A DNA stretch of 58,291 nucleotides. Origin: Gemmatimonadales bacterium. GTDB lineage: Bacteria; Gemmatimonadota; Gemmatimonadetes; Gemmatimonadales; GWC2-71-9. The position numbers and the translations under genes were made by a program. The DNA lies in NCBI GenBank assembly GCA_038321865.1, contig JBBQFH010000018.1:1-58291 (forward strand), in the 5' to 3' direction. The notes under the pieces were generated by a model. The model saw nothing but the letters and a program-made list of their open reading frames with translations. It did not search any database and had not been told where the DNA came from. Below, one piece after another: positions 47,555 through 58,281 of this stretch (position 1 is the first letter of the stretch; each line of letters begins with the position of its first letter).

Positions 47555-47770
47555 ATGAACTATGATGAGATCGTGTCGCTGCTGGGGTATGCCGGCGGAC
47601 ACGGGCAGCCAGTGCGGATCACCACGACCGATCGAAGCGAGATCGTCGGTATCCCGACCAGCGTGGACACCCACGTCACCGCCCACGAGGTGTATCTCCG
47701 GCCCGCCGGCGTCTCCGATGTCGAGATCGCCGTGTCGCTGAACGCGATTCGAACCGTCGAGATGGTCTGA
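47555..47770 (+). CDS. Small hypothetical protein, Sm/LSm-like fold suspected
   Basis: GGAGG RBS; 71 aa helix plus five short beta strands (VRITT, EIVGIPTSVD, EVYLR, EIAVSL, IRTVEM). Confidence 0.6.
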   Translation: MNYDEIVSLLGYAGGHGQPVRITTTDRSEIVGIPTSVDTHVTAHEVYLRPAGVSDVEIAVSLNAIRTVEMV

Positions 47771-47826: not shown

Positions 47827-47853
47827 TGAAACATTCGGCGACTGCCTCCCGTA
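47827..47853 (+). promoter_or_regulatory. ECF sigma (SigW-like) promoter TGAAAC-N17-CGTA
   Basis: Both elements match the Bacillus SigW consensus TGAAAC-N16-CGTA, with a spacer 1 nt longer; 32 nt upstream of the first array gene. Confidence 0.55.
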
Positions 47854-47885: not shown

Positions 47886-48146
47886 GTGGAAGACATTCTC
47901 GCGATCATCCTCATCTTCGGCGGCGGTACGCTGACCGTGCTGGCGTTCAGTCCGGTCGGCCGTGCGCTCGCCGACCGGATCCGCGGGCACGGGGCCGAGC
48001 CGGCCTATGATCCGGAACTGTCTGCAGAGGTCCAGTCGCTGCGCGCGGACGTGTCCGAGCTGCAGGAGCGGGTGGACTTCACCGAACGGCTCCTGGCGCA
48101 GCGCGGGGAAGCCGCGCAGCTGGCCCCGCGGAGCGAGGCGCAGTAG
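47886..48146 (+). CDS. PspB-like small membrane protein, array copy 1
   Basis: GAGGAG RBS and GTG; TM helix, SPVGRALADRI, coiled coil ELQERVDFTERLLAQ. Confidence 0.75.
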   Translation: MEDILAIILIFGGGTLTVLAFSPVGRALADRIRGHGAEPAYDPELSAEVQSLRADVSELQERVDFTERLLAQRGEAAQLAPRSEAQ

Positions 48147-48148
48147 CC

Positions 48149-48427
48149 ATGCCCTTCGAGGATCTGTTGAAGGGGATCGTGATTCTGACCGCTACCGCCG
48201 GGTTCGTAGCGATCGGATACGTCGCGTTCCGATCTGCCATGGTCTGGCTCCGCAAGTACGAGCGTCGGGGCGAGGGACTGGGGCCGGGCGCGGCCGACGA
48301 GGCCGCCGCGCGCTTCGAGCGGCTGGAGCATGAGCTCGCCGAGCTTCACGAGCGGGTGGACTTCGCCGAACGGCTGCTGGCGCAGACGCGGGAGCCGGGG
48401 CTTCTGGGCCGAGGGGGTGACTTATGA
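48149..48427 (+). CDS. PspB-like small membrane protein, array copy 2
   Basis: TM helix and ELHERVDFAERLLAQ. Confidence 0.75.
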   Translation: MPFEDLLKGIVILTATAGFVAIGYVAFRSAMVWLRKYERRGEGLGPGAADEAAARFERLEHELAELHERVDFAERLLAQTREPGLLGRGGDL

Positions 48428-48717
48428 ATCCCGTAGTCGCCGGGGCGTTCATGATGGCGACCTTGGTGCTGATCACCACGGGCGTCACGCTGATTCTGCG
48501 GGGCCCGCTCGGCCGGGCGATCGGCCGCCGGATCGAGGGCAAGTATGCCGACCCCGGCGACAGCATACGCGTGACCGAACTGGAGCACCGGGTCGCGGAG
48601 CTCGAGGGCGTGCACACTCGGATCGGCGATCTCGAGGAACGGCTCGATTTCGCTGAGCGCCTCCTGGCCCGGGGGCGAGACTCCGAGCGGCTCGACGCCG
48701 GGAGAAAGGCTCCATGA
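48424..48717 (+). CDS. PspB-like small membrane protein, array copy 3
   Basis: ATGA overlap; TM helix, GPLGRAIGRRIEG, DLEERLDFAERLLAR. Confidence 0.75.
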   Translation: MNPVVAGAFMMATLVLITTGVTLILRGPLGRAIGRRIEGKYADPGDSIRVTELEHRVAELEGVHTRIGDLEERLDFAERLLARGRDSERLDAGRKAP

Positions 48718-49061
48718 TGCCGCAGATTCCTGCTCCCCCGGCACCTCCCTCACTGCCGACGGTGTTCGTCGGGACGGCCTCGCATATGGACCCCGCCGCA
48801 ATGGTGATGATCGCCGTCAGCGTGCTGGTCGCGGCGACGCTGGTGCTGCTGCCGCTGGTGCGCGCGCTGGCGCGCCGGCTCGAAGGAAAGACGGCGCCGC
48901 AGCAGGCGGCACTCCAGGCCGAGGTGGATGAGCTGCGTGCGCGTGTGCATGAGCTGGAGGGCGGTCAGGCGCGGATCCTCGAGCTGGAGGAACGGCTCGA
49001 CTTCACCGAACGGATCATCGCCCAGAAGCAGGATGCGCTCCGCCTGCCCAACAGCCCGTGA
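48714..49061 (+). CDS. PspB-like small membrane protein, array copy 4
   Basis: ATGA overlap; Pro-rich N-terminus, TM helix, PLVRALARRLEG, ELEERLDFTERIIAQ. Confidence 0.75.
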   Translation: MMPQIPAPPAPPSLPTVFVGTASHMDPAAMVMIAVSVLVAATLVLLPLVRALARRLEGKTAPQQAALQAEVDELRARVHELEGGQARILELEERLDFTERIIAQKQDALRLPNSP

Positions 49062-49177
49062 GTGGCGAAACCGTCGCCCGGGTAACGGAGCTGGAGGAGC
49101 GAGTTGGCTTCAGTGAGCCACTACTGCTGGCGCATCGCGGTGAAATACTGAGGCTTGAGAGAGGCGGGGTAGCGTGA
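49058..49177 (+). pseudogene. 39-aa TM-less degenerate array copy (micro-ORF or remnant)
   Basis: Hand translation MSGETVARVTELEERVGFSEPLLLAHRGEILRLERGGVA; GTGA overlaps with both neighbours; shorter than any ORF in the supplied track. Confidence 0.55.
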
Positions 49178-49527
49178 AGAAGTGGCTCGGCATCACCGGC
49201 ATGGACTTCGTGATTCAGGCCGTGGTCACAGGCTGCATGATCGGCGCCCTCATCGGGCACGTCGTGCCAGACGAGGTCGTCGTGTTCGGCCTGATTGGCC
49301 TCTCGGTGATCGTGCTTGCCGTGCGGCGCCATTTCGCGCTGAAGCGCCAGGGCGACGTCGAGTCCACTGGTGAGCTGGCCGCGCAGCACGTCGCGGAGCT
49401 CGAGATGCGCCTGAACGACCTGGAACTGGGTCAGGCGCGCGTGGCCGAGCTGGAGGACCGCCTCGATTTTGCCGAGCGGCTCCTGGCGCAGCGACAGGAC
49501 CAGATGCTTCCCGGGCCGTCGGCGTGA
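49174..49527 (+). CDS. PspB-like small membrane protein, last array copy (two TM helices)
   Basis: Two hydrophobic segments and ELEDRLDFAERLLAQ. Confidence 0.75.
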   Translation: MKKWLGITGMDFVIQAVVTGCMIGALIGHVVPDEVVVFGLIGLSVIVLAVRRHFALKRQGDVESTGELAAQHVAELEMRLNDLELGQARVAELEDRLDFAERLLAQRQDQMLPGPSA

Positions 49528-49615: not shown

Positions 49616-50011
49616 ATGATCACGAGGGAGGACATTCAGTCATGGCTCGACCGCCTCGACGGGGGCAGCCTGACAGCGCGGGAGGTCGAGCCCAATCTCT
49701 GGATCGCGCATACGCCGGACGGCGCAGAGGTCGTGGTGCACTTCGCCCCGCCGGTCGTGCTGCTGCGGGTGCGGGTGATGGAGCTGCCCGGGACCGGCGG
49801 CCGGCAGGCCGACCTGTTCCGGCAGCTGCTCGAGCTGAACGCGCGGGACCTGGTGCACGGCTCCTACGGGCTCGAGGGCGATCACATCGTCCTGACCGAC
49901 ACGCTGGAGCTGGAGAATCTGGATTACAACGAGTTCGAGGCGAGCTTCGACTCCGTGACGTTGGCGCTGGCGTCGCACATGACCACGCTGGCACCCTACC
50001 GCGAGAGGTGA
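49616..50011 (+). CDS. CesT/YbjN-family (T3SS-chaperone-like) protein
   Basis: LFRQLLELNARDLVHGSYGLEGDHIVLTDTLELENLDYNEF pattern; GGAG RBS; adjacent to pspA. Confidence 0.75.
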   Translation: MITREDIQSWLDRLDGGSLTAREVEPNLWIAHTPDGAEVVVHFAPPVVLLRVRVMELPGTGGRQADLFRQLLELNARDLVHGSYGLEGDHIVLTDTLELENLDYNEFEASFDSVTLALASHMTTLAPYRER

Positions 50012-50017
50012 TTGTCC

Positions 50018-50784
<767 letters not shown>

Positions 50785-50785
<1 letters not shown>

Positions 50786-51918
50786 TGGCGACGTCTGACG
50801 CCGAGCGGCGGCACGGATTTCCCCTGACGGCGGCCCTGGCCGCCGTCTTGCTGATCGCGCTGGTCCTGCGGACGGCCGACGTGCTGCTGGTCATCTTTCT
50901 CGCCGTCATCCTCGGGGTCTACCTGCGCGCGCTGGCCGACGCCCTGGCGCATCGGCTGAGGGTACCGCAGCGGCTCGCCCTTCCCCTGGCCGTCGTGATC
51001 ACGCTCGGCGCGCTGACCGGGATCGTGCTGCTGATAGCCCCGGCGGTCGCGAACCAGGTCCAGGATCTCCTCACCAACATTCCGCGCTTTCTGGCAGACC
51101 TCGACCGGAGCATCACGACACTCACACAGCGGATTCCGGCCCTTCGGCGCCCGGCCCCGGCGCCAGGGCAGCCGGGGATCCTCGCGTCGTCGATCGGCGA
51201 GCTGTTCGGGGCGCTCCGGGGCGCGGTCGTGCCGTACCTGCGATCCGGCCTCGAAGTGGCGATCGAGAGCATCAGCGTGTTCGTCATGGCGCTGTACCTG
51301 GCCCGGCAGCCCGGCACTTACGTTGACGGGCTCGTGGCACTGGTCCCGCCTCCGCGGCGACCGCTGGTCCGGCGCATCCTGCCCGATCTCGCCACCACAC
51401 TTCGCGCGTGGGTGATCGGCCAGATCACCGCGATGCTCATTCTCGGCCTGCTCACGACGCTGGGCCTCTGGATCCTTGGGGTGCCGTACTTCCTCGCCTT
51501 CGGCGTGTTTGCCGGCGTCGCCGCGATCGTGCCGTTTTTCGGTACCCTGCTCTCGACCATCCTGCCGGCGCTTTTCGCGCTGAGTGCGGATGGCGTGCCC
51601 CGGATGCTGGCCGTGGCGGCGCTGGGAATCGTCGTGCACCTGATTGAGGCCAACCTGATCGCCCCGCAAGTGATGGAGCGCCAGGTCAACCTCCCGCCGG
51701 TCCTGACCATCGCGGGTGTGCTGATCATGGGCAAGCTGTTCGGCACGATGGGACTGCTCGTCGCGGTCCCGGTGCTGGCGGTCATCATGGTACTGATCCG
51801 CCACATCCTCCTCGGTGCGGTCTACGGTGACATCCGCGATGAGTCCGCGGCGTCCGGCACCGTTTCCGCCGAGGAACCGCGAACGATCGACCCACCCCCG
51901 AACACCGCGAGACGATGA
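50785..51918 (+). CDS. AI-2E family transporter
   Basis: Multiple TMs; WVIGQ, IVPFFG, EANLIAPQVM..VNLPP, GLLVAVP. Confidence 0.9.
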
Positions 51919-52997
51919 GCGCTCCGCTTTACCTGATCATCGCCGACGGCGACTTCGCGCCGATGACGTCGAAGACCGCCAACTCCGTTATCCGCTATCT
52001 GCCGGGCCGGGTCGTGGCCGTGCTCGACCGCCAGCAAGCCGGCAAGACCGTGCAGGACGTGCTCGGCTTCGGAGGCGCCACGCCGATCGTCGCATCGATG
52101 CGCGAGGGGCTCGGCCGGAAGCCGGATACCGTACTCATCGGGATCGCGCCGCAAGGGGGCCGCCTGCCGGCCGACTGGTACGGGTGGCTGGGCGAGGCGC
52201 TGGACGCCGGCTGCAACATCGTGAGCGGTCTGCACACCTTTCTGGGCGACGATCCGACGCTGGCCGAGAAGGCACGGCAGAATGGGCGCACCATCAGCGA
52301 CCTCCGGAAGCCGCCCGCCGATCTGCCGATCGCGTCCGGTCTGGCCAAGCAGGTGGAGCCGCTGGTGGTGCTGACGGTGGGCACCGACTGCAACGTGGGC
52401 AAGATGACCGCACAGCTGCAGCTGGCGGCGTCGCTGAATGATGCCGGCCTCCGCACGCGTTTCGTCGCCACCGGCCAGACCGGCATCATGATCGAAGGCT
52501 GGGGCATCGCGGTGGACGCGGTGGTCGCGGATTTCATCGCCGGCGCCGCCGAGCGTCTGGTGCTCCAGGGCTCGAAGGATGCGGATATCGTTCTGGTGGA
52601 GGGGCAGGGGAGCATCAACCACCCGGGCTATTCCGGCGTCACGCTCGGCCTGCTGCACGGCTCCTGCCCCGATGCGCTGATTCTGTGCCACCAGTCCACC
52701 CGGCGGTATATCGGCGACTATCGCCAGGCCGCCTGGCTGGAGCTCCCGCCGCTGGCGGAGTACGTGAGGCTGTACGAGACGATCGGCTCCGCGGTGCACC
52801 CGACGAAGGTCATCGGCATCTGCCTCAACACGTACGACATGACGGAGGATGAGGCCCGCGCCGCGTGCGCGGCGGCCGAGCGGGAGACCGGACTTCCGGC
52901 GACCGATCCGGTGCGGTTCGATCCCGCGCCGCTGGTCGCCGCGGTCTCCGGGTTCAATGCGCGATACAAGGAGGGCAGGGCCCGGGTTCGCGCATGA
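51915..52997 (+). CDS. DUF1611 / DgcN-like P-loop protein
   Basis: KTANSVIRY, SGLH, VGTDCNVGKMT, ATGQTG, DFIAGAAE, EGQGS..HPGYSGVT..LLHG. Confidence 0.88.
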   Translation: MSAPLYLIIADGDFAPMTSKTANSVIRYLPGRVVAVLDRQQAGKTVQDVLGFGGATPIVASMREGLGRKPDTVLIGIAPQGGRLPADWYGWLGEALDAGCNIVSGLHTFLGDDPTLAEKARQNGRTISDLRKPPADLPIASGLAKQVEPLVVLTVGTDCNVGKMTAQLQLAASLNDAGLRTRFVATGQTGIMIEGWGIAVDAVVADFIAGAAERLVLQGSKDADIVLVEGQGSINHPGYSGVTLGLLHGSCPDALILCHQSTRRYIGDYRQAAWLELPPLAEYVRLYETIGSAVHPTKVIGICLNTYDMTEDEARAACAAAERETGLPATDPVRFDPAPLVAAVSGFNARYKEGRARVRA

Positions 52998-57847: not shown

Positions 57848-57920
57848 GCTGACGTAGCTCAATTGGCAGAGCAGCTGATTTGTAATCAGCAGGTTAGGGG
57901 TTCGATTCCCCTCGTCAGCT
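57848..57920 (+). tRNA. tRNA-Thr(TGT)
   Basis: Acceptor GCTGACG/CGTCAGC; anticodon stem GCTGA-TT TGT AA-TCAGC; TTCGA loop; no encoded CCA. Confidence 0.97.
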
Positions 57921-58013
57921 CGGTGAAGCCGACACCCGCGTCGGAGTTCGCGCAGAGCGGGGAGGATCGGAGTGTGGTAGAGGCAGCGTGCGTCGGGCGT
58001 GGCAGGCAGGTGC

Positions 58014-58097
58014 GGTGGGGTGACCGAGTGGCTAATGGTAGCAGACTGTAAATCTGCCGGGCTCTGCCCTACGTAGGTTCGAATCCTACCCCCACCA
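58014..58097 (+). tRNA. tRNA-Tyr(GTA)
   Basis: Acceptor GGTGGGG/CCCCACC; GCAGA-CT GTA AA-TCTGC; long variable arm. Confidence 0.97.
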
Positions 58098-58119
58098 TGG
58101 ATGCTGGGAGAGGGACATC

Positions 58120-58192
58120 GCGGGTGTAGCTCAGTTGGTAGAGCATCAGCCTTCCAAGCTGAGGGTCGCGGGTTCGAGCCCCGTCGCCCGCT
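58120..58192 (+). tRNA. tRNA-Gly(TCC)
   Basis: Acceptor GCGGGTG/CGCCCGC; TCAGC-CT TCC AA-GCTGA. Confidence 0.97.
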
Positions 58193-58208
58193 TAGGGAAC
58201 AGAAGGGC

Positions 58209-58281
<73 letters not shown>

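Follow-up and report, generated by a model that had tools for sequence, protein, structure and literature searches.

The 58,291-nucleotide stretch of Gemmatimonadales DNA analysed here (the window) carries a tandem array of five small membrane-anchored paralogues, which ends shortly before pspA, the gene for the bacterial ESCRT-III protein PspA/IM30. Related Gemmatimonadales have the same layout before pspA, with 1 to 13 copies. The array proteins are likely to hold PspA at the stressed membrane as a substitute for PspBC, a role for which we infer a direct binding of PspA.

All genes of the array lie on the forward strand. Paralogue 1 (subtype A, which is the best conserved of the subtypes; 47886..48146; 86 aa, GTG start) has one transmembrane (TM) helix, an amphipathic helix and a coiled coil; paralogue 2 (subtype H; 48149..48427; 92 aa) has one TM helix, and its membrane part is the most variable; paralogue 3 (subtype B; 48424..48717; 97 aa) has one TM helix, an amphipathic helix and a longer coiled coil; paralogue 4 (subtype C; 48714..49061; 115 aa) has a Pro-rich N-terminus, one TM helix and an amphipathic helix; and paralogue 5 (subtype E; 49174..49527; 117 aa) has two TM helices. 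The headless remnant of a sixth paralogue (49058..49177), with a decayed motif and no TM helix, precedes the last gene. Including the remnant, the junctions are four 4-nt overlaps and one 2-nt gap. The five intact copies (86-117 aa) share the layout of a TM helix, a linker and a coiled coil with a terminal ERxDFxERLL motif, and the amphipathic P(L/V)xRA(L/I)xxR(I/L)xG helix is found in genes 1, 3 and 4. A preliminary description of the locus had listed these genes, lengths, junctions and TM counts, the sixth fragment and the helix in three genes, and all of them were recovered, with the motifs exactly as it quoted them.

The AlphaFold2 model of paralogue 1 (mean pLDDT 90) consists of a TM helix, a short helix, a hinge and a 36-residue helix (helices at residues 2-21, 23-36 and 43-78). 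A Foldseek search of the PDB with this model returned no match at E<=0.001, and a sequence search of the PDB returned generic TM plus coiled-coil matches only (best E 0.056). A six-frame scan of the 3.4-Mb genome for the motif gave eight matches, five of them in the array, and 140/140 family members keep the F, E and R of the motif unchanged; the motif of the array is therefore not a product of chance.

Downstream, and also on the forward strand, a gene with a CesT/Tir-like (YbjN-like) chaperone fold (49616..50011; CesT_Tir_1, PF22550, E 5e-27) is followed by pspA (50018..50785; PF04012, E 9e-49), which is present in a single copy in the genome. A gene for an AI-2E family transporter (50785..51918, forward strand) overlaps the pspA stop codon and is found there often, not always, in relatives, and a DUF1611/DgcN-like gene (51915..52997, forward strand) is the usual neighbour further downstream. 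The 5′ side of the array is occupied, on the same strand, by uvrA and a 71-aa ORF, and no divergent pspF is present. This small ORF (window 47555-47770, forward strand), without a match in Pfam or NCBIfam, lies between uvrA and the promoter-like site described below in most loci of f1, the family of the window's genome. At the contig end is a cluster of tRNA-Thr, -Tyr, -Gly and -Thr genes (57848-58281).

The absence of pspC noted in the preliminary description was borne out, as there is no PF04024 match in this genome (89.9% complete). A bare PspC domain occurs in 5 of 41 genomes, always on another contig or far from pspA. The gene cesT stands directly 5′ of pspA here and in 66 of 68 linked loci; a CesT_Tir_1 match is absent genome-wide in nine genomes whose array directly abuts pspA, and six genomes of f2 have cesT-pspA without an array (f2 and f3 are other families sampled among the relatives). 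Because these nine array-bearing genomes have no CesT_Tir_1 match, the constant partner of the array is PspA and not CesT. The gene cesT is a dispensable, optional part of the module, and a necessary role for it is unsupported. PspA of the window and of relatives has a conserved C-terminal tail, QLGxG ... DAExVE, past the Pfam domain (encoded at 50700-50782 in the window), and an L-P/G-x-G tail resembling it ends many array members (61/140, by a loose pattern).

A profile search with the five proteins matched 7,749 clusters among 7,993 candidates scored, and the record titles (78 of 80) and protein labels of the relatives assign the family to Gemmatimonadales / Gemmatimonadota. A 140-member profile matches 178 of 201 genomes of the phylum (tallies that include the unpublished genome G173); every f1 genome matches (97/97, with 2-20 matches each), and outside the class one of 15 does. 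Six of 141 locus matches, which had no motif, had no TM helix or were truncated, were left out of alignment A2. A search for longer fused forms, with lengths of 151-217 aa outside its range, gave four matches, which appear to be frameshifted arrays or genes with a misplaced start.

Among the best 80 genome matches, a set biased by its selection for likeness to subtype A, 12 loci are cut by a contig end and none is unlinked, and pspA lies within 1 kb 3′ of the last copy in all 68 informative loci. The arrays of these 68 loci have 2-13 copies. In a sample of 40 relatives, array and pspA share a contig in 20 of the 23 f1 genomes with pspA, the other three being cut by contig ends, and in all six f3 genomes with pspA; f1 and f3 arrays in this sample have 1-9 copies. 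No f2 genome has the array before pspA (0/8). Within the class, the family is present in 176 of 180 genomes with pspA versus one of six without it, counts that are weakened by the inclusion of small genomes and kin. The survey proposed in the preliminary description does find the linkage to pspA in other genomes, yet outside f1 and f3 the family is mostly unlinked: two of 40 matches adjoin pspA (10 genomes), one of the 40 (L199) resembling an unrelated long coiled coil.

Other settings of the family were also observed. A divergent single member is conserved in several orders between bshC and a murJ-like gene that follows it (C44:10802-11083, forward strand; L171, L177, L179, L183). In f2, a variant of the motif occurs in 1-3 tandem copies just 5′ of a response-regulator gene, away from pspA, in all five genomes examined (L185, L186, L188, L190, L191), and the one case scanned in full has the order histidine kinase, motif-variant copies, sigma-54 response regulator.

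The array is headed by an ECF (SigW-type) promoter-like site, TGAAAC-N17-CGTA (47827..47853, forward strand), identified by sequence and conservation and missed in the preliminary description. TGAAAC/CGTA is reported as the SigW consensus of Bacillus subtilis (PMC5758882), in which SigW is described as driving pspA-ydjGHI and PspA as needing membrane partners (PMC8581546). The pattern is present in 23 of 35 full-length upstream regions versus a mean of 0.2 in shuffles, and before 65 of 66 further array loci. Scored with a matrix built from other genomes, 47827-47853 is the top site of the genome, and 14 genomic sites score 18 or more with the promoter matrix versus 4-7 in shuffled genomes. The site also stands before the array-less cesT-pspA of f2 and, in other families, before seven places with family copies, six of which are away from pspA. 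Several f1 loci without cesT showed no such site 5′ of the array, the four dispersed family copies of this genome show no consensus site, and the 260 nt 5′ of the array hold no sigma-54 pattern.

One of the 20 sigma genes in the genome has the promoter-like site at its own locus. SigW is the best NCBIfam match of this sigma, below the cut-off of that family, and an anti-sigma-like gene follows. The stop codon of the SigW-like sigma gene (C9:61576-62178, reverse strand) overlaps the TGAAAC-N17-CGTA site that heads the anti-sigma gene. The sigma is present in 40 of 41 genomes, and in 29 of 30 loci (L201-L230) the site lies where the sigma and anti-sigma genes meet, while none of the 30 has it 5′ of the sigma gene; the junction site is likely a negative feedback promoter. 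Taken from sequence and conservation, the array and pspA are likely co-transcribed from the predicted promoter, which would be read by the SigW-like sigma. Further high-scoring sites (C9:72594, C9:66990, C7:71844, C2:20288 and C34:9403, all on the reverse strand) precede genes for an HtpX-like M48 protease, a 70-aa small membrane protein and other envelope genes, which form a candidate regulon.

A shared promoter may be all that joins the array to pspA. The array proteins would then be effectors within the SigW-like regulon that guard the membrane on their own, as PspBC can, or dock on another conserved partner, as might be suggested by the dispersed copies of other orders, which keep the site without pspA at six places (one a 3-gene tandem), by the f2 pspA operons without an array, and by the protection of Yersinia by PspBC without PspA, as reported in PMC9239133. 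We consider this unlikely, since pspA adjoins the array in 68/68 informative loci while cesT and the downstream genes vary, and the family tends to be lost together with pspA. Much less probable is a role in adjusting the stress response, with the motif binding a histidine kinase, a sigma-54 activator or an anti-sigma/protease and not PspA. The five f2 genomes with 1-3 copies before a response regulator, with the arrangement of kinase, copies and sigma-54 activator confirmed in one, would fit such signalling adaptors, and PspF belongs to the same activator class (as stated in PMC11237479), but the f2 context has a different motif variant and the f1 and f3 arrays have no linked regulator.

At least ten subtypes recur among the N-terminal parts of the family. 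Of 31 loci, 24 have subtype A, the order A-H-B-C-E of the window recurs in congeners, and 135 of 140 members have their nearest neighbour in the locus of another genome. Among the five paralogues the motif has a pN of 0.13 versus a pS of 0.49. In comparison with congeners, pN/pS is 0.30 for the motif and 0.59 (uncorrected) for the membrane part, with subtype-B pairs that are possibly not true orthologues; identical residues amount to 25-27 of 31 in subtype A and 6-11 in subtype H. Gene conversion as the source of the motif constancy was ruled out, as synonymous sites differ. These comparisons indicate that the copies are old, conserved paralogue subtypes under purifying selection, with gains and losses.

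It had been proposed that each paralogue uses its membrane part to detect an insult of its own and brings in PspA independently of the others. The combination of at least ten N-terminal subtypes with one constant motif, the copy number of 1-13 and the TM2 fusion described below could be read in this way. However, one predicted promoter serves all copies and no PspF-type relay is linked to them, and the anti-sigma is therefore the likely place of sensing for gene control; hardly any part of the proteins faces outward; and the comparison of TM part and motif that had been suggested revealed neither fast-evolving sensors nor a sign of positive selection, the nearest neighbours being in other genomes. 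The idea of a different insult for each copy is thus unsupported, and we regard a multi-sensor array as improbable. A link to phages had also been raised. An anti-phage array diversified by an arms race would account for the variable copy number and the decayed copy, but the array has no PADLOC match, no relative was found in viral contigs, and its fixed core position after uvrA and its old orthologous subtypes under purifying selection make this reading highly improbable.

Elsewhere in the same genome, a TM2-domain protein is fused to an ERxDFxERLL coiled coil (C47:1062-1415, reverse strand). The fusion carries the motif in 19 of 20 loci (L312-L330) and is full-length in 19 of 25 f1 genomes; the sole f2 TM2 match is without the motif. 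Because the motif is fused to a TM2 domain away from the array, it behaves as a portable module, which supports a constant docking part, and the earlier notion of variable membrane parts that carry one unchanging module at the C-terminus holds, including this conserved fusion. The layout of the fusion is PspC-like and its sequence is not detectably so; the TM2 domain was tried as a PspC homologue, which was unsupported (E 0.07).

The PspB-like identity given in the preliminary description stands as a distant likeness in profile comparisons and fails as formal membership of the PspB family, whose cut-offs and signatures are not reached. In size and layout the proteins correspond to PspB, being small, with an N-terminal TM helix and a coiled coil. 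Paralogues 1 and 2 match TIGR02976 at E 8.5e-4 and 3.5e-4 (19.6 and 20.8 bits versus a cut-off of 51.7), and no family member comes near the cut-off where scores are shown. TIGR02976 is the family matched by most members (37/140 at E<=0.05; best E 8.3e-5); GspM is also matched by 23/140, and PF06667 by 3/140 at E<=0.05. The PspB signature PxWLxLHY and the C-terminal PxWR are absent from the family consensus. The closest ESM Atlas clusters are unnamed Gemmatimonadota proteins, and one PspB-named cluster at 0.80 is a lead only.

An hhalign comparison of the array with a diverse 110-sequence PspB profile gave 85.5% (E 5.7e-6, 29 columns), a score reached by five of 100 heptad-preserving shuffles, with a register that slips one heptad. 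Scores of at least 15 bits against the PspB profile were obtained by 30 of 140 real members versus 1-3 heptad-shuffled ones. For 200 small accessory proteins encoded 3′ of pspC in sphingomonad-type operons, picked independently of the array profile, the alignment to PspB reached 96.5% and that to the array 81% (hhalign, E 1e-5, 62 columns; two of 100 shuffles reach the latter score). With PspB and accessory-protein profiles both built without array sequences, family members rank 1-4 of the 52,989 ORFs of the genome, the best E with the latter being 0.003. The plasmid search for PspB gave matches on 454 records, mostly enterobacterial, of which one Sphingomonas record was used. A PspC profile did not match the array family (E 0.1), and a five-sequence array profile reached 4.6% with one E. 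coli sequence of PspB and 2.2% with one of PspC, a comparison that was set aside. As judged from these profiles, the array family is likely a distant relative of PspB, a kinship best seen through the sphingomonad accessory proteins.

The design is not without precedent. The supplement of Ravi et al. 2024 (PMC11237479) lists a pspA operon of Erythrobacter litoralis (AOL22920.1) that contains five additional genes for PspB domains; an arrangement of divergent PspB copies in tandem next to pspA is therefore published and the array design, called undescribed in the preliminary description, is not new. PspB duplicates, PspC-PspB fusions and the CesT-PspA dyad are likewise described in that work. 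The psp operons of Sphingomonadales resemble the array in their tandem of small TM plus coiled-coil proteins beside pspA (2-5 of them 3′ of pspC in the 39 sphingomonad-type loci that have room), with variable N-termini and a C-terminal LEER(I/L)xxxER in register with the array. However, their accessory genes follow pspA-pspB-pspC opposite pspF, whereas the array precedes (cesT)-pspA, has no pspC or canonical pspB, has an ECF-type promoter site and carries a motif with invariant D-F and R.

Enterobacterial pspF-pspABC (PF06667, TIGR02976; PF04024) is alike in the size of PspB, in the layout of one TM helix, linker and coiled coil with R-h-x-x-h-E, and in the operon with pspA; the array differs in falling below the PspB cut-offs and lacking the PspB signatures, and in having no PspC domain, divergent pspF or sigma-54 site. 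Ravi et al. 2024 describe the CesT/Tir-PspA dyad, with cesT directly before pspA as here, in the company of band-7/flotillin, AAA+ or polyamine genes, whereas its partner in our loci is a PspB-like array and cesT is often lost. The B. subtilis pspA-ydjGHI and LiaI-LiaH systems share the SigW-type promoter and a PspA localisation that needs membrane proteins (as reported in PMC8581546), but their anchors (YdjG/H/I, LiaI) are single copies unrelated to the array proteins. The term 'gemmatimon' is absent from the text and supplement of Ravi et al. 2024 (PMC11237479; web tables aside) and from the main text of Popp et al. 2022 (PMC9239133; external data aside), and a literature search on Gemmatimonad PspA, PspB or ESCRT-III found nothing apparently related. 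The PspC-free, likely ECF-driven and highly expanded Gemmatimonadales version appears to be undescribed.

The coiled coil itself suggests how the proteins might work. Column frequencies give a heptad with L/V at positions -13, -10, -6, -3 and +1, A/T at +4 and L at +8 (R = 0), and R0 and E+5 fit the pattern R-h-x-x-h-E, which is linked to trimer formation. Residues E-1, D+2, F+3 and R+6 are 89-100% conserved and would lie outside the core, as a binding patch should, but they could instead be packed in a four-helix bundle. On balance we find it somewhat more probable than not that SigW-like induction, coiled-coil bundling of the membrane-anchored paralogues and recruitment of PspA through a shared patch act together. 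Envelope stress would release the SigW-like sigma from its anti-sigma and induce the operon; the paralogues would associate along the a/d face of their coiled coils, probably in mixed oligomers that combine the conserved subtypes; the near-invariant E-1, D+2, F+3 and R+6, off the a/d face, would form one common docking patch; PspA would be the ligand of this patch and polymerise there; and the differing N-terminal parts would set the membrane site or client where PspA acts, with CesT as an optional helper. A complex prediction of two paralogue-1 cytoplasmic parts (22-80) with PspA 1-228 gave a score of 0.18 versus a mark of 0.32 and speaks neither for nor against such a complex. In enterobacteria the C-terminus of PspC is reported to recruit PspA, with V105 needed for PspA signalling (PMC6003685); V105 may correspond to L+8 of the array with the motifs aligned by eye, which is a lead only.

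A bolder and rather doubtful extension is a combinatorial ESCRT-III adaptor code, in which the portable docking motif and mixed bundles would steer the single PspA to differing sites or damaged clients. If true, up to about 20 motif carriers per genome (array subtypes, TM2 fusion and dispersed copies) would take part, and the code would be a bacterial counterpart of the eukaryotic ESCRT-III adaptors.

Few anchors of PspA/ESCRT-III at damaged membranes are known (PspBC, LiaI, YdjGHI). The family offers a natural series of many membrane domains with one near-invariant 10-residue motif and one PspA per genome, which opens the docking question to tests with point mutants and short peptides. A candidate sigma and promoter can now be named for the response to envelope stress in a phylum that is large and has been little studied. 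Tempered by the sphingomonad precedent and by a PspA binding that is so far predicted, these results provide a hypothesis of function for over 7,700 unannotated protein clusters.
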